Assembly (NCBI GenBank): GCA_030867685.1
Contig: JAQOWU010000007.1
Location: 2,046,001-2,110,000, forward strand
Reading direction: 5' to 3'
DNA: 64,000 nucleotides
Origin: Wickerhamiella versatilis
Taxonomy: Eukaryota
Shown: one piece after another, positions 8,915 to 61,257 of the stretch
How positions within the stretch are numbered: position 1 is the stretch's first letter
Layout: every line of letters starts with the position of its first letter
Made by a program: the position numbers and the translations under genes
The notes under the pieces: generated by a model
Seen by the model: only the letters and a program-made list of their open reading frames with translations
Databases searched by the model: none
Told to the model about the DNA's origin: nothing

Positions 8915-9154
8915 AGGTTTAGTGGGCTATTTGCCGGCAAACCGCTTTCAGAATTCCAATGACCTGAACTTAAATCACATACCAGTCTAGGCCATTATGT
9001 CGACAGGGTTTCGACATGGATAACATTTAACACTGATACGTATGCTTAAACTAAACAAACATGCACGCAAGAGCATCACAGGAGACTCATTTGACTTACT
9101 AGTACAACTGGTTATATCTAAACCTAGAGCCGGTAAAACAGACTATTAAAAAAA

Positions 9155-9838
9155 TTATAGAGCAACGCCAGTTGCTGCCCTCAGTTTAACAAGGGCAGCC
9201 ACTGCGTCTTGTTCCCGAGGAGTGGTATCCCGTAATGATTCGGGGCCAAGGGATGCCCAGTCTTCTTCATCAGTATGTTCACCGATCGTAGGCTCCTCTA
9301 GGTTATCACTGTCATCGTCATCACTAATAATGGCGGACTCCTCTGGTGATGAAGAAAGAGTCGGAATAGGCGGTCTGGATGTTGTTGAAACGCGTCGGTC
9401 TGCCTCAAGCAGAAGCTTGGCACCGTCCATAGATACAGAACGGGTATTCTGAAGCTTCTGATCAACAGCCCAGCGGCCCCATCCGACCTTGCTGAACTTA
9501 ATTCCCGATTTTGAATCACCAGAATCTAGTACCCCGACAATTACACGCCGCTGCTTCGACAGTGACAACCCACCAAATCCAGGTATGGTCTGGGCGAGAT
9601 GGGCTGTGATATGCCGAATAGCCAATGGTCCTTGAGAATGAAGCAGAGCAGCTATCTTAGCTGGAGTTACCGCGGCAGCAGCGGCAAGTGCCACAGGACT
9701 GTGAGTGTTCAATGGCTTATCTAGTGCGGACGAGGAGTGTCGTCGCCTTTGGTTGAGAATCTTTTGATGAGATTGAGTGCTCGTAGCAGACTGTGACTGT
9801 GCACGACCCTTATTCAAGGTTCGGCCGTCGCCTTCCAT
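9155..9838 (-). CDS. STB3: Sin3-binding/RRPE-binding protein Stb3
   Basis: VTPAKIAALLHSQGPLAIRHIT...IPGFGGLSLSKQRRVI...FSKVGWGRW domain; HTDEEDWASLG motif. Confidence 0.88.
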   Translation of the reverse strand: MEGDGRTLNKGRAQSQSATSTQSHQKILNQRRRHSSSALDKPLNTHSPVALAAAAAVTPAKIAALLHSQGPLAIRHITAHLAQTIPGFGGLSLSKQRRVIVGVLDSGDSKSGIKFSKVGWGRWAVDQKLQNTRSVSMDGAKLLLEADRRVSTTSRPPIPTLSSSPEESAIISDDDDSDNLEEPTIGEHTDEEDWASLGPESLRDTTPREQDAVAALVKLRAATGVAL

Positions 9839-12908: not shown

Positions 12909-13624
12909 CCGGTCCTCCGCACTCAGTGTAAACAAACGTTCAATAAAGGGGCAATACGCTGATTAATCAGCGTCATCCAAATGTACGTATACCTGGATAG
13001 TTTTACGACAATTTGAATGGCTATTAGGCTTAAACTCCTCGATTGCAAAGATTGTGGAATTGAATATTATAAGATTCGTGAAGATATTGGACCTACTATT
13101 GTTAGTAACAGCACTAGCATGATGACCGCTTAGTTTGTATGAAACCCTAGCCTTGGTGATAATTTGTCTTCCAACAGGTGGCATTTATGGTCAATGGAAA
13201 AAATGAGAATCTACGTGGATAAACCTTCTTGAGGGCTCTTTTATATTTATTGCCCCAGGTAATATGTGCAAATTATGAGCCTCAGCCACTCAACACCTAT
13301 CTTAAGGTGAACTTTCTTTGTCATCATGATTTGCTGTTGAGCGTTGGAGACATCTTATTTAGCCAGCACGAAGAGTGAGGTCCCAAATTTGTTGTCTTTT
13401 ATAGAGTTTAATATATAGCATACTAATCTATACTAGAGAAAGCACATTACACTGCTGAGATAGCTGCAATTACGTAGAAAAAAACTTAAGTGAACCCCAA
13501 CCCAACCACGCCCGTAGTAGCAAATTTTTCAGCACGGTAATATATGAGTAACCAAGCGCAAGCCTGGTATATATTTGCTAAGTCCCACTCGAGATAATTT
13601 TACTTACGTACCTCTCGATTGCAA

Positions 13625-15181
13625 ATGGTAAGTGTCTACGACAGGTAAAGGCGCATGGGATGCTTGAAAGGGCATCTTAAGGATAACACAGTTAATACGG
13701 ACCGGTTCTCTTCATTTGTGGGCCGGTTTTCGCTGTGGACGTCTTGGTGAAAACTTTTTCATCTGCGCCTCCACCTTCGAAAGTCAACGCAGAAACTAAC
13801 ATAACAGGGTAAAGAGAAGACTCACATTAATCTCGTCGTTATTGGCCACGTCGATGCTGGCAAGTCGACCACCACTGGTCACCTGATCTATAAGTGTGGT
13901 GGTATTGACAAGCGTGTCATCGAGAAGTTCGAGAAGGAAGCCGAGGAGCTTGGTAAGGGCTCCTTCAAGTACGCCTGGGTACTTGACAAGTTGAAGGCCG
14001 AGCGTGAGCGTGGTATCACCATCGATATCGCTCTCTGGAAGTTCGAGACCCCTAAGTACTACGTCACCGTTATTGACGCCCCTGGCCACCGTGATTTCAT
14101 CAAGAACATGATCACTGGTACCTCGCAGGCCGACTGCGCTATCATGGTCATTGCCGCTGGTGTCGGTGAGTTCGAGGCTGGTATCTCTAAGGACGGTCAG
14201 ACCCGTGAGCACGCCCTTCTTTCATTCACCCTGGGTGTGCGCCAGTTGATTGTCGCCATCAACAAGATGGACGCCGTCAAGTGGAGCGAGGACCGTTACA
14301 ACGAGATTGTCAAGGAGACCTCCAACTTCATCAAGAAGGTCGGTTACAACCCCAAGGAGGTTCCTTTCGTCCCCATCTCTGGTTGGAACGGTGACAACAT
14401 GCTTGAGCCTGGTACCAACAGCCCCTGGTACAAGGGCTGGACCAAGGAGACCAAGCAGGGCTCTTACAAGGGTAAGACTCTCCTTGAGGCCATTGACGCC
14501 ATTGAGCCTCCTGTCCGTCCTACTGACAAGCCTCTTCGTCTTCCTCTTCAGGATGTTTACAAGATCGGTGGTATCGGAACTGTCCCTGTCGGCCGTGTCG
14601 AGACCGGTGTCATCAAGCCTGGTATGGTCGTCACTTTCGCCCCTGCCGGTGTGACCACTGAAGTTAAGTCCGTCGAGATGCACCACGAGTCGATCCCTGA
14701 GGGTCAGCCTGGTGACAACGTCGGCTTCAACGTCAAGAACGTCTCCGTCAAGGACATCCGTCGTGGTAACGTCTGCGGTGACTCCAAGAACGACCCCCCT
14801 CAGGAGTGCGCCAGCTTCACTGCCCAGGTGATTATCTTCAACCACCCTGGCCAGATCTCTGCTGGTTACTCTCCCGTTCTTGACTGCCACACCGCTCACA
14901 TTGCCTGCCGCTTCGGTGAGCTCCAGCAGAAGATCGACCGTCGTACTGGTAAGACCGTTGAAGAGAACCCCAAGTTCATCAAGGCTGGTGACGCCGCCAT
15001 CGTCAAGATGGTCCCCACCAAGCCTATGTGCGTTGAGACCTTCACCCAGTACCCCCCTCTTGGCCGTTTCGCCGTCCGTGACATGCGTGTCACTGTCGCC
15101 GTTGGTGTCATCAAGGGTGTCGACAAGACCTCTGGCTCTGCCAAGGTCACCAAGTCTGCTGCCAAGGCCTCCAAGAAATAA
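13625..15181 (+). CDS. TEF1: Translation elongation factor 1-alpha; exons 13625-13627 and 13808-15181
   Basis: Splicing ATG to GGT AAA GAG AAG ACT CAC restores [25 protein letters not shown]; the rest is canonical eEF1A. Confidence 0.98.
13628..13807 (+). other. Spliceosomal intron of TEF1 (180 nt), highly structured
   Basis: GTAAGT donor directly after the ATG, ACTAAC branch point at 13795-13800, CAG acceptor at 13805-13807; splicing restores the frame. Confidence 0.95.
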
Positions 15182-39951: not shown

Positions 39952-40543
39952 TTATCTAGCGACGTAAGAGCGAAATACAGAAGTTGCTTGCGAGAGCGCA
40001 CGAGATGCAGCGGTAAGTGCTGCCTCGTTGCCAAGATTTCCTTGACGATTTGCATCGTCTACAGCAGCAACGATTTTCGCCACATTTGTTTCAAGTACCA
40101 GCCCACCTTGAACTATCTCTTCCAGTACCGTTTCAAGCACTTCCCAACCGAAAACAAGATCTAATTCACAAACATTGCCAAAGCATCGGTCAAGCGCCTC
40201 AACAAACACCTGTATTAGGTCCAAGATGCCAAGTTCTGATTCTTGGCGGTCGACAATAAAAACAAAGTTCAGCGTTGCATACTGTCGATATATCACACGA
40301 ACCGCATCCTCAGCACCTTCTCGCGTTTCAAGCAAAAGCTGTGGTGGCGTTAAGAAATTGCATTGTTTTACTGAGCGCTGTAGCAGGATCGCATAGACCT
40401 GTTTGACAAGTTCTTGCTGAGCTGCTATAGGCAGAGGAGTATAGAATTTAACCAAACGTGGTTGTCCATTATTATTCACTGCGTTAGCACTGCCAGTGAC
40501 ACTAGCGAGTAGAGAACATACCTATAACTACCGAATGTATCAT
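39952..40543 (-). CDS. APS3: AP-3 adaptor sigma subunit; exons 40543-40522 and 40478-39952
   Basis: Splicing gives MIHSVVIVNNNGQPRLVKFY; YRQYATL, ESELGILDLIQVFVEALDRCFGNVCELDL. Confidence 0.95.
40479..40521 (-). other. Spliceosomal intron of APS3 (43 nt)
   Basis: GTATGT donor, GCTAAC branch point, then G and CAG acceptor; splicing restores the conserved N-terminus. Confidence 0.92.
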
Positions 40544-41066: not shown

Positions 41067-41221
41067 CAATTATAAGTTATCCATCGCATTAAAGCTCGCT
41101 ATATTGCCTTTCATATGTCATATAGAATATTTCTCTGGAGAAAAAACAATTCAATCAGTCACCTTATCGCTTTCAAGTGATCTTAAGGCCATCAGCCCCC
41201 CGGTGATCTACTATTCCAATA

Positions 41222-41444
41222 TGACTCAGCGGCGTTGCTCGGCCGGACTCGGCCGAGCAGCATTGCTGTCAACACGAGTCTGGGGATTCAATAAAGGGTA
41301 AATATGACAATAAACATTCGCAACTGAAATTTACCTCCATTATGCGCCACAATCACTGCACATTTTTGTGGGTTCAAGGGGGTTACGAAATTGTGGGGTA
41401 GGGCTAGGGCTAAGCCGAACATGACCGGCCGGTCACCTTATAAA
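41222..41444 (+). promoter_or_regulatory. MLS1 promoter elements
   Basis: TGACTCA 41222-41228; CGG/CCG inverted repeat 41236-41259; AT-flanked GTGGGG (Mig1/CreA-like) 41393-41398; palindrome 41422-41435; TATAAA 41439-41444. Confidence 0.55.
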
Positions 41445-41486
41445 GAGGCCAGCATCGAATCTTAACACGTCACTTTCAAGTTTAAG

Positions 41487-43127
41487 ATGGTTGCTCCTAT
41501 TGAAAGCCAAGTTGCCGGCATCGCACATGTGCCAGTTTCAAGCGAAGTATCGCGAAAGATATTCACCAAAGAAGCACTAGCGTTTGTGGCTACATTACAT
41601 CGTCAATTCAATGGCCGTCGTAAGGAGCTTCTAGCAGCAAGAGAAGCTCGACAAGGGCGTATTGATGCTGGCGAGTTTCCAGATTTCTTGCCAGAGACAA
41701 AAAAGATTCGTGAGGACCCTACATGGCAAGGCCCTAAGCCAGGCCCAGGGCTTGAGGACCGCCGGGTTGAGATTACCGGACCCACTGATCGAAAGATGGT
41801 AATCAATGCTCTGAATTCTAACGTATATGTGTATATGGCCGACTTCGAGGATTCTCAAACCCCAACGTGGAGTAATGGTACCGAGGGACAGGTCAATCTT
41901 TATGATGCTGCGCGGGGTGACATTACATTGCAGCAAGGGCCGAAGTCTTATGCACTGGTCAAGGATCGTTCTCAGTATGAAAAGAAGACCCCTGTGACTC
42001 TTATGGTGCGTGCACGGGGCTGGCATCTTGATGAGAATAACTTCCTAGTCGATGGTGAGCCTGTGAGTGGTGGTATTTTCGACTTTGCTCTTTTCTTCTT
42101 CCACAACGCCCGCAAGCTTATTGAGGCTGGCCATGGTCCCTATTTCTACCTTCCTAAGATGGAATCCCACCTAGAGGCCCGTCTTTGGAATGATATCTTC
42201 AATTCCGCGCAAGACTACATTGGCATCCCCAGAGGAACAATTCGGGCCACGGTGCTTATAGAGACGATTTTGGCCGTTTTTGAAATGGACGAGATCATCT
42301 ATGAGCTGCGAGACCATAGTGCAGGCTTGAACTGCGGCAGATGGGACTACATTTTCTCGTTTGCTAAGAAGTTCAGAGCTCATCCAGGTTATGTTTTGCC
42401 AGACCGTGATGATGTTACTATGACTGTTCCCTTCATGAACGCCTATGTTCGTCTCTTGATCCAGACTTGCCACAAGAGAGGAGTCCATGCCATGGGTGGT
42501 ATGGCAGCCCAGATCCCTATCAAGAATGATGTTGAGGCAAATAAGAAGGCGATGGGAGGTGTTTATGCAGACAAATTGCGCGAGGCTACAGCAGGTCATG
42601 ATGGTACTTGGGTGGCCCATCCCGCGTTGGCAACTATTGCATTGGAGGTTTTCAACAAGCATATGCCTGGACCTAATCAGATCTTCAAGAGGTTCCCACT
42701 CACAAAGGTAACTGCCCAAGAGCTGATAAATCCAACTGTAACTGGTGGTAGCGTCACAGAGGCTGGCATTAGAAAGTCTCTCTACATTGCCCTGGGATAT
42801 ATGGAGGCCTGGCTGCGGGGTGTTGGTTGTGTTCCTATCAACTTCCTTATGGAGGATGCAGCCACGGCAGAGGTTTCCCGTGCCCTTTTGAACAGCTGGG
42901 TAAAGCATGGTATCAAATCTGCAGAAGGCAAAAAGGTCACCAAGGACTATGTGCTCTCACTTCTCAAGGATGAGGTTAACAAGATCAAGGAGACTCAAGG
43001 TGCTGGTAAGTTCGATGAGGCAGCAGCCTACCTAGCTCCAGAAATTTCCAACGAGAAGTTCAGTGATTTCCTGACCACTTTGTTATATCCAGCCGTCCTC
43101 ACGGCTACTCCCAGCGAAAAGCTTTGA
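41487..43127 (+). CDS. MLS1: Malate synthase (glyoxylate cycle)
   Basis: [58 protein letters not shown]; ends in EKL (PTS1-like). Confidence 0.97.
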
Positions 43128-51354: not shown

Positions 51355-54300
51355 TTACATGTAGTTTGTCAAGGCGGCCACTGCATTTTCTATACGGGTA
51401 ACGTAAATTTCTTTTCGCAAAATAGGCTCATTACGTGCCTGCAATCTATAATTCTCAGGCGGTTCTCCAGAGACTTTCGCTGAGCATAGGGCTTCGAGTC
51501 TATGACAGTACTGCTGCAAAGCAGCTTCAGCAGCCAGTGATGGATACTCAGGTATGGCACGTACTGTCTCATCATCGGCCGGAAAGAAAATAGAACGCCC
51601 ACTGAGGCGCTCCGGATATAGTATGTGTATGTGCTCAACGTTCTCAATACCACGTAATTTCATCTCACCAAGCTCTTCGACAACATAAGGTTGGGTAGGA
51701 ACTTCGCCTTGCTGCTCGAGTTGGCGGATTACTGTGAGAAATTCTGCACTGACAGCTATTTGTCCCCCATTGGCAGTTCCGCTGATTCTCGCAGTTCGGT
51801 TCACCATGGGCCCGAAATAGTCCATACGTCTCGTTATGGGATCACGTTCGGAAACGGGAGTCCCATAATGAATTCCCATTCTCACACGAAGTCCTCGAAA
51901 TATCAAATCACTATCACCATTGTGAACCGGCAAACATTCCTCCGCCTCTAGAAGCTTTTGCGGCCACCGCGCCTTAAGAAGACTTGACTGCACTGTCAGA
52001 CACCAGCTCAAAGCTGCAACTGGTGAGTGAAAGCTTACAATGAAGGCATCTCCTTCTGTCTTGACCTCATATCCTTCAAGCAATCGGATAGTGCGACGCA
52101 TTATGGCATTGTGAACCTTAATGGCCTCACGCATAACGCCTGGCATGGTTTCCCAAAGCTGAGTAGAGCTACGAATGTCCGTAAACACCATAGTAACATC
52201 ACCTTGTGGTGGTGCTACTTCCATTCCGAGGCGTGCGAGGGCAGAGTCTTCAGGTAGCTCACGTCGAGAGGAACCTGCTCTGGAATTTTCTCTTGCTTTA
52301 TTACGTGGGCTCAAAACCATGACTAGAGCAGCATCATGGAGCCCGTATGCCAAGGCAAAGTCTCGCAACTTCAAAGCTGCGCGCATGGGATCGTGAGACT
52401 CAGAAAGAACCAAGTCTGCCATTGTTTCTGGCGAAATAAATTCCCAAAGTGCATCATTTGCCAAAACTACCACATCGTCCGGATCGAGTTCTGCTCTCAA
52501 AGTAAATGGCGCGGCGCTCAAAGTTTGAGGGTAGCATCCCAATGCATGATCCCATTTATACCGACCAAGAATAAGACCCTTTTCATCTACCCAAATTCTA
52601 GACGACGCCAGTGAAGTAACATCCAAAGATGGCTGATAAAGAATCTGAAACTCACCGCTTGCTTTGCAAACCACTACGTGCGTACCTCCGAGAGAGGCTA
52701 GCCACAATGTAGACCCCTGGACGTAGAGCACGGCAGCCCCGGTGCCCGAAAAGCAGTCCTCAGCGCTGAAACGCCCAACTGCTGGTGAGTGATGTCCCAA
52801 GTGAGTATGTGGAATTTCCTCCGGGCTCAACAAAACAGTATTTCCTATTTCCCGATGTACAGCAAGAAATGATCTTCTCAAAGCATCTTCAGGTGTCTCT
52901 TCCGGAGCAAGGCGGTCTAACTGCTGTTTAAACTCCGATACAAAGTTTTCCTGAACCAAATGGCTCATTTTATTACCTCCATGGTCTGGATTATGCCCGT
53001 GGCCATCGAACATGCCAATGAGAACTTCATCTTTTAAGCCACGGAAGCGATCTACAACAAGATCATTAATTTCTAGTGGCTTCTTGTAGAGTGTACCAGC
53101 CACCCCAAGTATACGACTACTCAACTCACTTCCGTATGTCCTGACACGGCAGTTTTCTGTTTGTTCAGGCACTCCAGAGACAGTGAGCGTAACATCTACC
53201 AAAGAAAGGAGATTAAGGTTGGGCAAGACAGAAAAGTCACATAATTCGGTTTCTCCACGAATCTCGAGACGACGATTTGACGCCAAGGAGAGCTGTCGAA
53301 GCTTCTTGTTAAAGCACCAGGACCAGTCAAATGGCCAGTTGGACACATTATACCTTAAGTTATTCGCACTGACATCCAATACTTCCAAATTAGAGGCCTT
53401 TGCAAGCTCTGCTGGTAATGTGTGCAAGTTGTTTCCAGATGCGTGTAAAACTTCTAAATTTTCAGCATGCTCAAAGTCCTCATGTGGCAATGTAGACAAG
53501 CGATTACCGGAAATATGCAGTTCCCGGAGTTTTGCAAGCCGCAAAAACGTATCTGGGGGCACTTCGGCGATTGAATTACAAGTCAAGTTGAGATATTCCA
53601 AGTTTGCAAGCATAGTGATATCATCAAAGCAGTCCTCAGCCAATCGGTTATCCGCGGCATATAGATATGTCAGTGCCATCCCGGCAGGTGGACCCGGGTG
53701 AGCGGGTAGCAACTGCAACAAGTTTGAGGATATATTGAGTTTACGCAGTTTGGGTAAACTCCAGATTTGTGGCAACTGCTTGATGTTGTTGCTGTGCACA
53801 TCTAGAATTTCAAGATTCCTTAACTCCAGTAACTCAAGAGGTAGTCCGACCAGAGAGTTACTGCTTAAGCCAAGTTCACGCAACTGCTCCAGTTTCGTGA
53901 TGCTCAAAGGCATACGTGTCAAGTTATTTCTATCCAGCCGGAGTGACTCTAGACATACCAAACCTGAAAAGTTTTGCTCAGAAGGTATTTTCACACCTGT
54001 TAAATCAAGTCTAGTAACCTGTCGCATGCTGTTATCATCGACGATTTCAAGATTCATGACATCTCTAAGCTCCACTGACCTCAGGCGCATTTCTTTGCTT
54101 GCTTTTTTCGTAGTGTTAAAGCCCAGAACCGGGCGCTTGTTGTTCGTTACTGAGACATTTCCCGTGGCACGTAATATAACTAGAGTGGGTAAGTTTGCGA
54201 CTGGTAAAAAGTCAGTTATTTGATTATACCTCACATCGAGCTCCAGTATGTGGGAAAAGCTTTCCATCACCGGTAATTGATTCATCTGGTTGTGAGATAG

Positions 54301-55617
54301 CCGAAGCACTTCTAACTTTGGAAGATTCACATCAGCCGCTTGTAATAAGTTGTAGCTCGCATCCAAATGCTTAAGATTTTTGTGCGAAAACACCAGCTTC
54401 TCTATGGCGTTACTTCCAATATAAAGGCTGCGAAGAGATTGTGGAAGACGAGAGGGTACTTGCTTAAGACTGTTAGCTCTGAGATCAAGAGTTTCCAAAT
54501 TCACAAAATTGGACAGATCAATATCCTCGTCGATATGATTGCTCTTCATGCTCAGGTGCTTGAGACTATGGGCAAAGTCCGAAAAGAACGGGGGTAACTC
54601 TGAACCTCGTAGTCTTTTTTGATCAATTTTCAATGTCGTTAGTCTCGTAAAATCCATAATACCGTATATTGCACTCCTGGAAAGATCTAGACTGGTGATA
54701 TTAGGGGCAAACCTGCTCAAATAGGCTGGGACGGGGCCATCATGATTCCGCAATGACAGACTGTCAAGAACATGTCCACTCTGTCGAGGTGGCCGCAAGG
54801 GATGCCGAGTCAAGACTATCCTGCAAAGGAAACTGACATCATCGCGACAAACATCAGTGATTTTGTCGCGATCAGTAAATCCGCAGCGAAAGAGCAATCG
54901 TCGCATCAAACTTACCGGTAAATCATCATCTGCGAGGTAGCGGATCCCTTGTGGAAACACTACAGCAAGATGACAGTTATCAGAATCCTCAATGAAAAAT
55001 TTACGAGCAGCAAGTTGTAGCAGGTCTTGCGTGGTTGACTGTGGAGTGCAAACTACCGTCCCAAAAGTCCCATTTTCCCGATACACTCTAAGGAAGAAGC
55101 GCTCTTTCACATCTGCAGGCTCAGATGTTACTGGCAGCTCTCGATGCCGCAAACCCGGATTCAGAGGGGGTGCAGCTGCAGGCAACATGGTCTGTTGTGT
55201 CCGGACTGAGTCTATTGAATCTCTTGACGAGGTTGCCTGACTTGGATGTCGAGATGTGTTATCGGTACCCTCAGTGCTAGATCGACCGTGCGATAGACTG
55301 CGCAAAGATTCAGTGATACTACGACTGCGACTACGACTGCGGTGGCGATTGTTGCGAGACATAGGGCGATTTCCAGGAACAGTCAAGTGATCATGAATCC
55401 CAGAGTTAGCTGTCACTCCTTGAGCTGCTCCCTTCAAGATATTGAAAAGTGATTTGAATGGCCTGCTCGAAGATTTGTGGTCCGACGAATCGATTGGGCC
55501 CCTGATACCTTCCATCGACCCTTTAGGTCTGATTCGAGGTGACGAATTAGCACTCCGGCTACGTTCCGGCTCGTCAAATGATATTCGAGGCTCCGAGGGC
55601 GGACGGTCCCTCTCCAT
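51355..55617 (-). CDS. CYR1: Adenylate cyclase
   Basis: Ras-association domain, long LRR array, PP2C-like domain (MFDGH), class III cyclase (VFTDIRSST, YEVKTEGDAF, RVRMGIH, MDYFGPMVNR). Confidence 0.97.
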   Translation of the reverse strand: MERDRPPSEPRISFDEPERSRSANSSPRIRPKGSMEGIRGPIDSSDHKSSSRPFKSLFNILKGAAQGVTANSGIHDHLTVPGNRPMSRNNRHRSRSRSRSITESLRSLSHGRSSTEGTDNTSRHPSQATSSRDSIDSVRTQQTMLPAAAPPLNPGLRHRELPVTSEPADVKERFFLRVYRENGTFGTVVCTPQSTTQDLLQLAARKFFIEDSDNCHLAVVFPQGIRYLADDDLPVSLMRRLLFRCGFTDRDKITDVCRDDVSFLCRIVLTRHPLRPPRQSGHVLDSLSLRNHDGPVPAYLSRFAPNITSLDLSRSAIYGIMDFTRLTTLKIDQKRLRGSELPPFFSDFAHSLKHLSMKSNHIDEDIDLSNFVNLETLDLRANSLKQVPSRLPQSLRSLYIGSNAIEKLVFSHKNLKHLDASYNLLQAADVNLPKLEVLRLSHNQMNQLPVMESFSHILELDVRYNQITDFLPVANLPTLVILRATGNVSVTNNKRPVLGFNTTKKASKEMRLRSVELRDVMNLEIVDDNSMRQVTRLDLTGVKIPSEQNFSGLVCLESLRLDRNNLTRMPLSITKLEQLRELGLSSNSLVGLPLELLELRNLEILDVHSNNIKQLPQIWSLPKLRKLNISSNLLQLLPAHPGPPAGMALTYLYAADNRLAEDCFDDITMLANLEYLNLTCNSIAEVPPDTFLRLAKLRELHISGNRLSTLPHEDFEHAENLEVLHASGNNLHTLPAELAKASNLEVLDVSANNLRYNVSNWPFDWSWCFNKKLRQLSLASNRRLEIRGETELCDFSVLPNLNLLSLVDVTLTVSGVPEQTENCRVRTYGSELSSRILGVAGTLYKKPLEINDLVVDRFRGLKDEVLIGMFDGHGHNPDHGGNKMSHLVQENFVSEFKQQLDRLAPEETPEDALRRSFLAVHREIGNTVLLSPEEIPHTHLGHHSPAVGRFSAEDCFSGTGAAVLYVQGSTLWLASLGGTHVVVCKASGEFQILYQPSLDVTSLASSRIWVDEKGLILGRYKWDHALGCYPQTLSAAPFTLRAELDPDDVVVLANDALWEFISPETMADLVLSESHDPMRAALKLRDFALAYGLHDAALVMVLSPRNKARENSRAGSSRRELPEDSALARLGMEVAPPQGDVTMVFTDIRSSTQLWETMPGVMREAIKVHNAIMRRTIRLLEGYEVKTEGDAFIVSFHSPVAALSWCLTVQSSLLKARWPQKLLEAEECLPVHNGDSDLIFRGLRVRMGIHYGTPVSERDPITRRMDYFGPMVNRTARISGTANGGQIAVSAEFLTVIRQLEQQGEVPTQPYVVEELGEMKLRGIENVEHIHILYPERLSGRSIFFPADDETVRAIPEYPSLAAEAALQQYCHRLEALCSAKVSGEPPENYRLQARNEPILRKEIYVTRIENAVAALTNYM

Positions 55618-56278
55618 CAAGCCCGCTTATACCTTATTAATAAGCGATGTACTTGATTACGGTTGTAAGGGGATGATGATTGCCGAGGGGTTGTGTCAGA
55701 AAGTAATTTAGAGCTAAATATGCTTTTTTTGAAAACAGGAGAAAAAAAAAGTAATTCGATCTTATCAATTTATCTATATCATATAACCATAGCCTTATCC
55801 TCATATCTCAATAAAATATTACATTACGATGAGATGATATACCGTAATTAGAATATCGGACCGAACGCTACCGGCTTATCATATATAATATTGGTAAGGA
55901 TACAGTTTTCTAAAAAACCAGTGAAACAAATTATTCTGAGTCTAGTCGTAAGTGCATTAAGTGAAGTGAAGAGAAAAAGCTCAAAAAGTGGTCTCTATGC
56001 AAAAAAGTTTTTGAGTAAGTCCTTTGATACAAAGCTTTACTGCTTATTTCTGTGGAGATGACTCAATAGGTTATTGTTCACTTTCGTGTATGATAATATA
56101 CAATGATCTAGGATGAGGTCTTCTATTTGATATTCTTTGCCTATTTGTAGTCACTGATTTCCGTTTATTTGGGCGGGCTGACTTGTAAGCTAATGTTTAT
56201 GCCAGGACCCGCTTTGTCATCTCAACCGAGAAGTAAATAATAATACTCACTTACTCGTTTGGAGAAGGAAAACAAACA

Positions 56279-57258: not shown

Positions 57259-57661
57259 TTTCAGATATGATTACAAACAAGTCACATTCACGCTTGAACA
57301 AGCAACTTCAGGATACATTTGATAGTTTACAAAAAGGTGCGGAAATACCATATCACTATTGCACTGATTTATACCGTAAAATTGAGATATTATTCAAGCA
57401 TATTTTCTTTTTTCTAACAGAATTTTCGTAGTCCCGGCAACGCGTTGTTGATCTTGTGAAGTCACTGGTCGGCCGTAGACGGCGTACATCTCCTAAAATA
57501 CACAATATTATATATTCATCAGGCTTGATAAATGGGACCTTCTTTCTGGTTCACGACAAGAAATTCAAATATACTTGACAATACCCGGGTAAGGGCTTTT
57601 ATGAATCAGCAGCTATTTAAACCGAACCTTAGCCGAAAATCTTGTCATACAACGCATATTT

Positions 57662-57825
57662 TAACGGCCAGCATTAAAGTATTACTACGAGGGACCCTCC
57701 GGGTGTCCCCAGGAAATATGTAATTAAGCGGGCCGGAGATTAACCTGTTGATCTTGGGTGCAGCATCCTTAGGCCAGCCCTTCGTGGCTCCGATGGTGGG
57801 TGGTGCAAGGATCGACAGGACACTT
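57662..57825 (+). ncRNA. Box H/ACA snoRNA candidate
   Basis: Hairpin 1 closed by CGGCC/GGCCG (57665-57735); box H AGATTA 57737-57742; hairpin 2 with a 12-bp basal stem (57744-57755/57808-57819); ACA 57820-57822 followed by 3 nt. Confidence 0.72.
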
Positions 57826-58689
57826 TTAGGTCTTAGAATATTCTGTAGAGCACACCGGACAATGATTATCCTCAGGTGGTTCTTCCATAATGCAAAGGCA
57901 TACCGAACAGACATAGCCGATCTCTAGTACTTTTTTCGTCACAAAGCAGACGGCACTGAAGTCAACCTCTGGCGCTGTTGGTATATTCACGAACTTACGA
58001 GTAGCGGGATCAACCAGAAGGCCACCGGTAAAATATTGGACTAGACCCTTTGTAGACATAGGCTCCAAATAAGCCCCTCCGGTAAAATCGGCAGCTTGTT
58101 GCAAGAACGTCTTCGTACCGCCGATATTACACACATCAATAGGAACCTGCAACTTCTGGGCAGCAAAAATAGAGTTTATCGTTGGGATATATTTCGTAGA
58201 GACATCACCACTAGCGTTTACCACCAGGATCCGTCCGTCCAACCGACTCTCATTGGCATTCAGGATCTGGTTCATGTAGCACAACGCTAGAGAAAGAGGG
58301 CCAGCAACCGAGCATTTTGCATTCGGCGTCGGTGGCTCCATCATCTTGAAAAGTTCAGTGAGAACGGTTTCATCAACAGTCCGGAACTGACGGTACATTA
58401 TGCCAGCCAATTCATGATGCTCAGAAGATCCTGACGAGGGGTATAATAGTTTAGGCCCACGGCTGGACCAGCCTATCACAGCTACTTTATTGTTACTGTC
58501 CAAGGCCAAGTGTGCATTTAGTAGCACGAAAGTCGCTGCCAGAGCCTCGCGGAAGTTGATTTCAGGAGGGTGCGAGGCCCACCCATCTGAATTTGCATCA
58601 AATATCACAAGTAGCAATGATGCAAACTCATCAGATGCGGTTGCAGACACCCCTCCTAGTTGTGCAGAGGTGTCGTCAACCGCTTCCAT
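57826..58689 (-). CDS. TFB4: TFIIH subunit Tfb4 (p34)
   Basis: vWA-like domain (LLNAHLAL, LSLALCY, NSIFAAQK, FLQQAAD.TGG.Y) and C-terminal zinc finger (CSVCLC...CPVC). Confidence 0.94.
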   Translation of the reverse strand: MEAVDDTSAQLGGVSATASDEFASLLLVIFDANSDGWASHPPEINFREALAATFVLLNAHLALDSNNKVAVIGWSSRGPKLLYPSSGSSEHHELAGIMYRQFRTVDETVLTELFKMMEPPTPNAKCSVAGPLSLALCYMNQILNANESRLDGRILVVNASGDVSTKYIPTINSIFAAQKLQVPIDVCNIGGTKTFLQQAADFTGGAYLEPMSTKGLVQYFTGGLLVDPATRKFVNIPTAPEVDFSAVCFVTKKVLEIGYVCSVCLCIMEEPPEDNHCPVCSTEYSKT

Positions 58690-58728
58690 CGGTAGGTGTA
58701 CAGTCAGCCCTCCTCTGGCTGAACCGCC

Positions 58729-61257
58729 ATGGCGGATCCTGCAGTTATTCTTGAAGCAGTTGAGACTCAGTCCAGTGAAATTAGAATATTACTTGATGAG
58801 TTTTTACCGGAACCAACGCTGTTGGATCCAGTACTTCCTAAGTGTGTTGACCATATTGTATCGCGTCATTTAGAAAACCAGGAGCATCTAGAACTTCTCT
58901 ATGATTTTTGCAAGGTGAGAGGAGCAAAAATTATTGCACAACTACTACCAAGTAATGTGGAATTTTTACCAAGGGTGCTTGAATTGTGTGAAAATCCAGA
59001 TATAAATTGGCAAGAAAGATACGCACTTCTCGTTTGGCTTTCAATACTTGTACTGACACCTTTCCCTCTTAATATCGTGGGTGATGAAGTCGAGGAGCGA
59101 TTGTGGAATTTAGGAACTCGTTATATTTGTGTATCCAGTAAAGCGCGGGATGCTACGTCAGTATTTTTCTCTCGATTCATTGCACGACCGCCTAATGAAT
59201 TGCGTGTCGACAAGTTTGTCCAGTGGGCAGAGAGTATTTCGCGAAAGGGATGGGCGGAAATAGGAATCTTGGCTACTGCGGCTGGGCTCTGTAGGCTTGC
59301 ACCAAGCAAGTCGCTAATTTCACTAGTCAACGAGGAGGTATCAGGCATTTTAGCCAATAAACTTCGATTGAAATGCATTGGTAGGCTTGGCCTAGTCTTT
59401 CCAGAGCAAACGGAGTATGCGGTTGCTGAATGCTTTGAAGCACTGAATGACCAGGCGTCGACAGTCCGCTACACTGCAGCGAAATACCTCGCTAGACTTG
59501 CCGCTAAAGTAGGTAGTCCTCTGACTGAAGAAATTGATGCAGCTCTTTCTGAAATGTTTTGGGAAGACTTTACCCCATCAATGGCCAATGTTTCTACTGA
59601 CATGTGGCAAGGTATAATGTTGACTCTAGCGGAAATGATCCGCGTGGGTCATTGTCCACAGGATACTCTGAGAATGGTCCTGGCTGCTCTCAACCTTGTA
59701 CAGCGAAGGACCCGCTCTTCTGTCGGTGCCAATGTTAGGGATACAGCCTGCTATGTTTGCTGGTCCTTGTTTCGCAGTGGGAACGAAATGAATTTTAATG
59801 CTATATACCGGTCACTCTGCATACTGGCTTGTGTGGATCGTGAGTTAACAGTGAGACTTGCAGCTGCAGCTGCCCTACAGGAAGGTCTAGGTCGTCGTAA
59901 CGACTTTTCACCTGAGCGGACATTGGAACTTCTTGAGCTCGTAAATTTCTCCACGGTAAGGTCATTAGAGCGCTGCTATTTGGAGATTTCCCCTATAATA
60001 CCTGATCACCTGAGGCCAGGTATTCAAGAATTATTAGCGCATGGCATTGGCAGCAGCTTCCCAGAGCTACGAAGACTGTCACGACTTGCGTTCCCCCTTC
60101 TCCAATTGAGTTACCCATCGCTGATGGAGCTGGCAGATAAATCAGATCCTGATACCCACCATGGGGTTATGCTTTGTTTGAGTACCTGGGATAACCCCAC
60201 AGTGGACTCGAGTGGTTGGTTGTATGAGCGTGTGTCAACAGACCTAGAATGCGAGGGGCAGCTTCGTCTGTTAACTATTCTACCTGCAAAATACTTGTCC
60301 AAAATGAATGAATGTCTAAAGAGTGAAGAACCCTATGTAATTGATGCAGCAAGGGATCTTGTACGTCGCCGCAAATCTGAACTTCATGACTTAGGGCTCA
60401 GTGATTTTTGGTACTCGCATATTGACGAGAGCTTGGCATTTGTTGCATGCATCGCAGAGCAAGGTTTTAGTGATGATGTGTTAAAGGCAATTCCGAAATT
60501 AACGAACCCGTCTAGTCGTGCTTTAGCCATATCCGCTCTACGTGGCTATTCTAGAGATTCCGATGCTGTTTTAACTGATGCACTAAATGACTATCAATGG
60601 GATGCTAGAGGAGACGTGGGATCCTGGGTTCGTCTCGCTGCTGTTAACAAAGTTTACGAGTGGAAGCATGATGGGGCCGTCAAAACGCAAGAACGTCAGC
60701 TATGGCGGCTCGCTGGAGAGGCTTCAGCTAAAGTACGCGAGGAGAGCAGAAAAATTCTACGAGAAGAAGGATATAACATCAATAATGATGATAATATGTG
60801 CATTTTGAAGGAAGTGCCATCAGAGTTTGAAAATGATGTTCTTCTTGGCTTGTGTCGTGATTATGGCTCGCATCCCACGAAGCACCCATATGATCTCCTG
60901 GATTATGGCGACAAGCTTCTAGATTTGGACAGAAGCCCATCTGTGCTGCGTACAGTAACGAAGCTCGTGGAATTAGGTGCGCCCTTCTCTCAACGGATTA
61001 TAGCTGTGGCATATAACGCTACTTTAAAGAAAAGTTCAGTCCATGATGGCTTGCGTATGCTTTCCTGCCTACCTTTAAAACCTGAATCTATCTCCAGAAT
61101 GGTAAGACTGTGCGGCTATCCAAATGGAGCTGTGAGACAACGGGCGGCTGAGGCGCTTTTTGAACTCGGATTTGAGGATGAGATAATTGAGAAAACAAAT
61201 TGGGAACGTGGGAACTGGAAGGAAGCAGCTGATTTATTGCGAAAGATATATAATTAG
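58729..61257 (+). CDS. CIN1: Tubulin-folding cofactor D (Cin1/TBCD)
   Basis: PTLLDP, CKVRGAK, WQERYALLVWLS, VRYTAAK, GANVRDTACYVCW, AAAAALQEGLGR, DARGDVGSWVR; HEAT repeats. Confidence 0.9.
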   Translation: MADPAVILEAVETQSSEIRILLDEFLPEPTLLDPVLPKCVDHIVSRHLENQEHLELLYDFCKVRGAKIIAQLLPSNVEFLPRVLELCENPDINWQERYALLVWLSILVLTPFPLNIVGDEVEERLWNLGTRYICVSSKARDATSVFFSRFIARPPNELRVDKFVQWAESISRKGWAEIGILATAAGLCRLAPSKSLISLVNEEVSGILANKLRLKCIGRLGLVFPEQTEYAVAECFEALNDQASTVRYTAAKYLARLAAKVGSPLTEEIDAALSEMFWEDFTPSMANVSTDMWQGIMLTLAEMIRVGHCPQDTLRMVLAALNLVQRRTRSSVGANVRDTACYVCWSLFRSGNEMNFNAIYRSLCILACVDRELTVRLAAAAALQEGLGRRNDFSPERTLELLELVNFSTVRSLERCYLEISPIIPDHLRPGIQELLAHGIGSSFPELRRLSRLAFPLLQLSYPSLMELADKSDPDTHHGVMLCLSTWDNPTVDSSGWLYERVSTDLECEGQLRLLTILPAKYLSKMNECLKSEEPYVIDAARDLVRRRKSELHDLGLSDFWYSHIDESLAFVACIAEQGFSDDVLKAIPKLTNPSSRALAISALRGYSRDSDAVLTDALNDYQWDARGDVGSWVRLAAVNKVYEWKHDGAVKTQERQLWRLAGEASAKVREESRKILREEGYNINNDDNMCILKEVPSEFENDVLLGLCRDYGSHPTKHPYDLLDYGDKLLDLDRSPSVLRTVTKLVELGAPFSQRIIAVAYNATLKKSSVHDGLRMLSCLPLKPESISRMVRLCGYPNGAVRQRAAEALFELGFEDEIIEKTNWERGNWKEAADLLRKIYN

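Follow-up and report, generated by a model that had tools for sequence, protein, structure and literature searches.

The intron that directly follows the start codon of the eEF1A gene (TEF1) in Wickerhamiella versatilis contains a 134-nt element whose sense-strand RNA is computed to fold into a four-way junction. The element lies in a stretch of 64,000 nucleotides from contig JAQOWU010000007.1, referred to here as the window, and is far more stable than its shuffled sequences. The fold, its stability, its robustness to sequence context, and its strand bias are established in silico only; by inference, the structure may form in vivo and may help splicing. It is hypothesized, tentatively and at slightly under an even chance, that the element is a zipper-stem type of compaction domain that would draw the branch point and the 5′ splice site together in a comparatively long start-codon intron.

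The position of the intron is given by the protein that it interrupts. The product of exon 2 aligns end to end with the solved yeast eEF1A chain 1f60_A (E 3.2e-273; query residues 1–457 to chain residues 2–458), and the translation of 13808–15178 harbors the Pfam domains GTP_EFTU (3.9e-59), D2, D3, and GTP-eEF1A_C. Exon 2 opens with GGT AAA GAG AAG ACT CAC ATT AAT, i.e., at eEF1A residue 2; therefore, only the Met codon lies upstream, and the intron is placed directly after the ATG. The same intron is also recovered by splice-signal scans of the window. Its 3′ splice site is the AG at 13806–13807, and the distance from the branch A at 13799 to the splice-site G at 13807 is 8 nt. Read from the sequence, a retained intron leads to a stop after 7 codons. 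Four public runs were aligned to the stretch at the level of contigs only. In contigs of RNA-like runs, one of which has 1 difference in 217 nt, the matching ends exactly at 13807, which fits the predicted acceptor; the joint 13627/13808 is not spanned, the 5′ exon side being too short.

Table 1. Coordinates of the TEF1 intron, its folded element, and the second intron of the window.
Feature	Position	Strand	Basis
ATG start codon, coding part of exon 1, eEF1A (TEF1)	13625–13627	+	sequence reads caaATG, then GTAAGT
Intron, 180 nt, phase 0, directly 3′ of the start codon	13628–13807	+	GTAAGT, ACTAAC, AG
5′ splice site GTAAGT	13628–13633	+	sequence
Four-way-junction RNA element, 134 nt	13643–13776	+	computed fold
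Closing stem, 5′ strand (outer AGGT, AA loop, inner AGGCGCA)	13643–13655	+	fold; pair probability 0.77–1.00
Arm 1, 10-bp hairpin, GAAA tetraloop at 13666–13669, 4 G-U pairs	13656–13679	+	pair probability 0.76–1.00
Arm 2, long 66-nt hairpin, two internal loops	13680–13745	+	fold, pair list
Arm 3, 7-bp hairpin, 4-nt loop	13746–13763	+	pair probability 0.72–1.00
Closing stem, 3′ strand (TGCGCCT, CC loop, ACCT)	13764–13776	+	fold
Branch-point box ACTAAC	13795–13800	+	sequence
Exon 2 of eEF1A, 457 codons and stop	13808–15181	+	Pfam and PDB match
43-nt intron (GTATGT ... GCTAAC ... CAG) after 7 codons of the AP-complex sigma-subunit gene	40479–40521	−	Clat_adaptor_s, 3.6e-43

The minimum-energy structure of the element as sense RNA is a four-way junction of −55.8 kcal/mol, in agreement, in both sequence and coordinates, with the junction that the initial annotation had drawn by manual pairing. 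The closing stem is recovered as proposed, with an outer helix of 4 bp (13643–46/13773–76), an AA/CC 2×2 loop, and an inner helix of 7 bp (13649–55/13764–70); its two strands form an inverted repeat of 13 nt, 85% complementary and 108 nt apart. Arm 3 is likewise recovered. The GAAA hairpin of arm 1 stands, but its 9 bp at 13657–13678 become 10 bp in the computed fold, since 13656 pairs with 13679. The same pair removes the single unpaired base that had been placed at 13656, such that the junction is indeed tight and harbors no unpaired bases at all. Arm 2 is a hairpin as described, although its base is shifted by one register and its apical stem, composed of the strands GGACCGGTTC and GGGCCGGTTT, has 9 continuous pairs rather than 10. 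These two strands are also a direct repeat. In total, the element contains 51 pairs (22 G-C, 18 A-U, and 11 G-U).

The comparison with dinucleotide shuffles, proposed in the initial annotation as a check, favors the fold: none of 200 shuffled sequences is as stable (mean −35.97, standard deviation 3.76, z −5.27). The structure also persists in its surroundings. When 401 nt of context are folded at 25, 30, and 37 °C, the closing stems and arms 1 and 3 hold pair probabilities of 0.72–1.00. The near-whole intron (13629–13808, one base off) folds at −61.2 kcal/mol with a z of −5.05 and no equal among 200 shuffles, and when the splice signals are held fixed during shuffling, the z of the intron fold is −4.1 with none of 400 as good. 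In the fold of 13629–13808, further outer pairs extend as far as +5 and +6 of the 5′ splice site. This outer extension of the closing helix, in which 13632–37 and 13639–41 pair with 13777–90, leaves the 5′ splice site partly paired in silico (unpaired probability of 0.13–0.54 at 37 °C), while the branch-point box is mostly unpaired (0.52–0.83 at 37 °C).

The suggestion that the G-U pairs favor folding of the sense strand is borne out by the antisense sequence, which reaches only −38.8 kcal/mol (z −3.74), 17 kcal/mol weaker than the sense strand. The 11 G-U pairs are set against two A-C oppositions (13647–48 facing 13771–72); were a DNA palindrome to decay symmetrically, the one-sided p of at least 11 in 13 would be ~0.011, as calculated by hand.

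Strong local RNA structure is not confined to the intron. A scan of both strands in 8516 segments, each 134 nt long, from which the 15 distinct best places were refined with 100 shuffles each, ranks the element third with a z of −5.41, behind two coding stretches. The highest-ranking place is 54841–54974 (−), with −52.0 kcal/mol and a z of −5.85 (−37.8 for the other strand). It is the sense strand of the RA-domain region of an adenylate-cyclase-like gene (51358–55626, −) with RA, LRR, PP2C, and cyclase domains; a GTAAGT is present in it, yet the reading frame is open throughout. Second is 58559–58692 (−), which forms two near-perfect hairpins at −59.0 kcal/mol with a z of −5.83 and belongs to the sense strand of the Tfb4 gene (57829–58788, −), near its 5′ end. 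Further structured stretches are found at 41155–41288 (+) and 9134–9267 (+), with z of −4.3 and −4.5, respectively; the former contains a perfect 12-bp G/C-rich hairpin roughly 200 nt upstream of the malate synthase open reading frame (ORF) at 41466–43124 (+). The two coding stretches suggest that RNA with strong local structure is frequent in this genome. Among the seven most structured places compared, the TEF1 element has the largest sense-strand advantage (17 kcal/mol) and the largest number of G-U pairs (11). Thus, the fold is far beyond chance yet not unique in the window, and the strand bias is what sets the element apart.

In the proposed mechanism, arms 1–3 would fold in turn as local hairpins while the pre-mRNA is being synthesized; all helices but the closing one are local, and the architecture would therefore suit cotranscriptional folding. 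The G/C-rich 7-bp stem, together with the weaker outer 4 bp, would then close the arms into the junction. Efficient bridging could thereby link the factors at the branch point with 5′-splice-site-bound U1 in a gene that needs a very high splicing flux, and the folded arms would also keep the interior of the intron from pairing with other RNA.

The geometry is consistent with such a role. Between the intron's first base and the branch A, the path is 171 nt in the open intron and 39 nt in the closed one (51 nt with the outer 4 bp open). The same path is 37 nt in the 43-nt intron of the AP-complex sigma-subunit gene, the comparison intron that the initial annotation had named APS3 and that is present in the window. 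Removal of the fold leaves an intron of 46 nt (180 minus 134), again as first proposed. Published zipper stems start 10 nt or more away from the 5′ splice site, end no fewer than 20 nt away from the branch point, and leave linkers of 42–85 nt in total (PMC12350175). In a re-implementation of the zipper-stem energy test, which is not the original authors' code, a stem trimmed to 13645/13774 has 9 pairs, linkers of 17 + 25 = 42 nt, and −12.3 kcal/mol, and the positions of its two ends agree with the first two of these rules. The published definition further calls for in vivo dimethyl sulfate (DMS) data that give a stem of 6 bp or more a helix confidence of no less than 70% (PMC12350175); for the 7-bp closing stem, the pair probability computed in silico is 0.77–1.00.

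Several observations weigh against the compaction reading. The linker total is exactly 42 nt only after the two outermost pairs are trimmed; with all four outer pairs formed, the path is 39 nt and the linkers are ~37–39 nt, under the 42-nt minimum modeled for S. cerevisiae. In the spliceosome, the stem would therefore need to open in part. Among 400 shuffled introns in which the splice signals were kept, 32 have a qualifying stem of −12.3 kcal/mol or better, such that the closing stem lacks the property of being more stable than shuffles, which was shown for the class across many introns. Similarly, a graph distance no greater than 14, the minimum-energy value of the real intron, is found in 239 of 400 shuffles; this test does not discriminate, since random-sequence folds also join their ends. 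Because both the closing stem and the joining of the ends are matched by shuffles, the excess stability is attributed to the three arms instead of the closure, and a pure zipper needs no such arms. Zipper stems tend to be absent from most of the short introns (<200 nt) of S. cerevisiae (PMC12350175). The comparison of intron lengths rests on one other intron, and the two coding stretches described above are equally structured, so the genome may form strong local structure for other reasons. The initial annotation had offered a device that shortens the effective intron as one of three explanations; its geometry fits, while the shuffle controls make it less convincing.

The other two explanations were an eEF1A-sensing element and an intron-encoded noncoding RNA (ncRNA), and both fare poorly against the searches for known RNAs. 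At gathering thresholds, Rfam gives no match on the element. With E values up to 10, the region 13400–14000 yields four matches, all far under threshold and none of them to tRNA or a tRNA-like structure: bantam (16.8 bits against a threshold of 61), SNORD18 (15.3 against 41, minus strand), SNORA55 (13.5 against 45), and atpB (11.3 against 37.4). ARAGORN finds no tRNA genes in the window, and reading of the intron sequence reveals neither C/D boxes (RUGAUGA/CUGA) nor a properly placed ACA box. A known RNA family, a tRNA, or a small nucleolar RNA (snoRNA) is thus ruled out as the identity of the element by Rfam, ARAGORN, and inspection for boxes. Binding to eEF1A-GTP requires a free, aminoacylatable 3′ end. 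The element lies inside the intron, a further 31 nt of which follow downstream, and has no free 3′ end; its arm lengths are also unlike those of tRNA. The eEF1A-sensing proposal is disfavored on these grounds.

The main rival to compaction, unlikely on balance and nonetheless to be taken seriously, is that the fold is a functionless by-product of template-switch mutations or local inverted duplications in intron DNA free of constraint, tolerated as harmless to splicing. Such an origin would agree with the presence of three places in 64 kb at a z of −5.4 or below, two of them in coding sequence (adenylate cyclase and Tfb4), with a zipper stem that 8% of shuffles match, and with the apical strands of arm 2, whose direct repeat is what a duplication could produce. 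Neutral decay of a DNA palindrome would not be expected to leave 11 G-U pairs against 2 A-C oppositions, nor a sense advantage of 17 kcal/mol, and it offers no reason for four separate helices to join without an unpaired junction base. No second copy exists in the window: a blastn search of the intron against the 64 kb returns only the intron itself, with the next best match being 18 nt at E 0.21. The same search bears on the insertion of a mobile element resembling a miniature inverted-repeat transposable element (MITE). The 13-nt imperfect terminal inverted repeat would be its signature, and its excision would leave a 46-nt intron close in length to the 43-nt one; with no other copy in the window, no target-site duplication visible at the flanks of the element, and a strong strand bias that would not be expected of a MITE, this origin is highly improbable. 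That the DNA rather than the RNA matters, with promoter-proximal enhancer sites in the intron, a contribution to intron-mediated enhancement, and the fold incidental, is scarcely more credible. In Yarrowia lipolytica, the TEF intron at the same place directly after the ATG raises expression (PMC13309789), and a pair of GGRCCGGTTY copies lies in arm 2 of the present element (13699–13708 and 13720–13729). Enhancer sites, however, leave unexplained the junction without an unpaired base, the G-U bias, and the closing inverted repeat whose strands are 108 nt apart.

The remaining alternatives assign a function to the RNA. The excised intron or its folded core might persist as a stable ncRNA of an undescribed kind with a function of its own, which is improbable. 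The location of the excess stability in the arms rather than in the closing stem is what such an RNA would show, and TEF1 would provide very many copies. [quoted passage not shown] It would carry little weight if short distances are ordinary in relatives too, and the characteristic distance in Y. lipolytica, a putatively related yeast, is 1 nt (PMC13309789). Furthermore, stable introns are reported to have no predicted structures in common (bioRxiv 10.1101/426049), and the Rfam and snoRNA-box results above count against an ncRNA of known type. Regulation by a protein, i.e., eEF1A or another factor that binds the junction and alters splicing, is judged quite improbable. Autoregulation via conserved intron structures is reported for yeast ribosomal-protein genes (PMC13232506, bioRxiv 10.1101/2025.03.14.643126), the predicted outer helix extension covers the 5′ splice site at +5 and +6 and could possibly be inhibitory if stabilized, and a retained intron brings the early stop; the lack of tRNA-likeness and of a free 3′ end stands against eEF1A itself, and autoregulation of eEF1A through an intron is absent among the titles listed by a literature search. 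Finally, because the excess stability resides in three arms that go beyond the need of a simple zipper, the junction might be a dedicated RNA module for which TEF1 serves as host by virtue of its top transcription rate, either as a sensor that, through eEF1A or another junction-binding factor, ties TEF1 splicing to the translation machinery's state, or as a stable trans-acting intron RNA. This idea is very improbable as well.

Relatives of the gene were sought by a metagenome scan with the eEF1A protein, which matched 589 stretches; 568 are relatives, and the best 80 were kept. Among these 80, the highest identity to the present eEF1A is 86%, and most are contigs of mRNA length. A recognizable N-terminus is found in 61, all of which (61/61) have the ATG directly before codon 2; the other 19 are outside the pattern. 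Of three genomic contigs considered, L010 and L042 carry no intron following the ATG. A distant fungal eEF1A on a 287-kb metagenome contig (L080) has its first intron at 1417–1500, two bases further in and inside codon 2 (ATGGG|GTATGT...CTAG|T). Two degenerate patterns that combine the intron end with the start of eEF1A exon 2 give no matches in genome contigs and none in viral contigs.

The stretch 13560–13900 itself is found in 20 of the 24 public runs listed, many of which are food-fermentation metagenomes. The runs that contain it in full comprise food-fermentation, sediment, and other metagenomes, as well as an isolate-like run of ~10 million letters. Two low-depth contigs from near relatives are ~97% identical over parts of the intron, one over 13550–13769 (X15 record 2) and one over 13672–13835 (X16 record 4), with 6 differences each.

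Scans of the 64 kb yield two credible introns only, those of TEF1 and the AP-complex sigma-subunit gene, and the genome looks intron-poor. TEF1 is flanked upstream by an FHA-forkhead gene on the other strand and downstream by a C2H2 zinc-finger-like ORF. An additional inverted repeat (13 nt, 85% complementary) links the TEF1 5′ untranslated region (13607–13619) with exon 2 (13919–13931) and pairs in the minimum-energy fold of the 401-nt context; it may have arisen by chance. The sole gathering-level Rfam match in the window (65.5 bits, threshold 65, E 2.1e-09) is Afu_182, an Aspergillus fumigatus sRNA family, at 57645–57823 (+), close to but outside the Tfb4 gene.

If the fold aids splicing, structural intron compaction would operate beyond Saccharomyces, here in the start-codon TEF intron of an intron-poor yeast that occurs in food fermentations; that intron position is already exploited as an expression enhancer in Y. 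lipolytica engineering. As a compact, self-contained module of 134 nt whose deletion would leave a minimal intron of 46 nt, the element is a clean test object for the relation of structure to splicing and to intron-mediated enhancement. If it is functionless, it is one more, ordinary case of strong local RNA structure in this genome. Interest is modest unless relatives show covariation in the arms.

With tRNAs and viral tRNA-like structures, the element shares only the number of helices, four, that meet at the junction. It has 134 nt compared to ~76 nt, arms of 10, ~25, and 7 bp, no linker bases, no visible T-loop motif, and no free 3′ end. To our knowledge, TEF1 of S. cerevisiae is intronless. 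The closest counterpart in gene and position is the TEF intron of Y. lipolytica (TEFin), which also lies directly downstream of the start codon; the term “secondary structure” has no occurrence in the main text of the TEFin paper (PMC13309789). The autoregulatory introns of RPL7B, RPL18B, and RPS22B resemble that of TEF1 in being structured first introns of translation-machinery genes with the structure near the 5′ splice site. Their structures are described as responsive to the cognate protein and as conserved from species to species, whereas the TEF1 element is a predicted fold. The stabilized excised linear introns of S. cerevisiae have in common with the TEF1 intron a short branch-to-3′ distance (20–25 nt versus 8 nt), but their stabilization does not involve structure (bioRxiv 10.1101/426049). 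A literature search considered at the level of titles lists no four-way junction in a spliceosomal intron, returning papers on small nuclear RNAs and group II introns instead.

The zipper stems of S. cerevisiae, found in 32 of 88 probed introns (e.g., RPS17B, RPL7A, and RPS11A) alongside a multiway junction in the RPL28 intron (PMC12350175), are like the TEF1 element in that extended helices take up the interior of the intron. It is the long introns of S. cerevisiae that typically have zipper stems, whereas the TEF1 intron is short at 180 nt. The element also differs in its four-way junction without an unpaired base, its three fully paired arms, a fully closed form that is tighter than the modeled 42-nt minimum, and an excess of stability that lies in the arms. 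Zipper stems in Yarrowia have been raised merely as a possibility for study (PMC2911113), while intron compaction has been mapped in S. cerevisiae and predicted in 20 further budding-yeast species (PMC12350175). Zipper-type compaction is thus an already known kind in yeast introns, to which the TEF1 element would, by analogy, be an added member.

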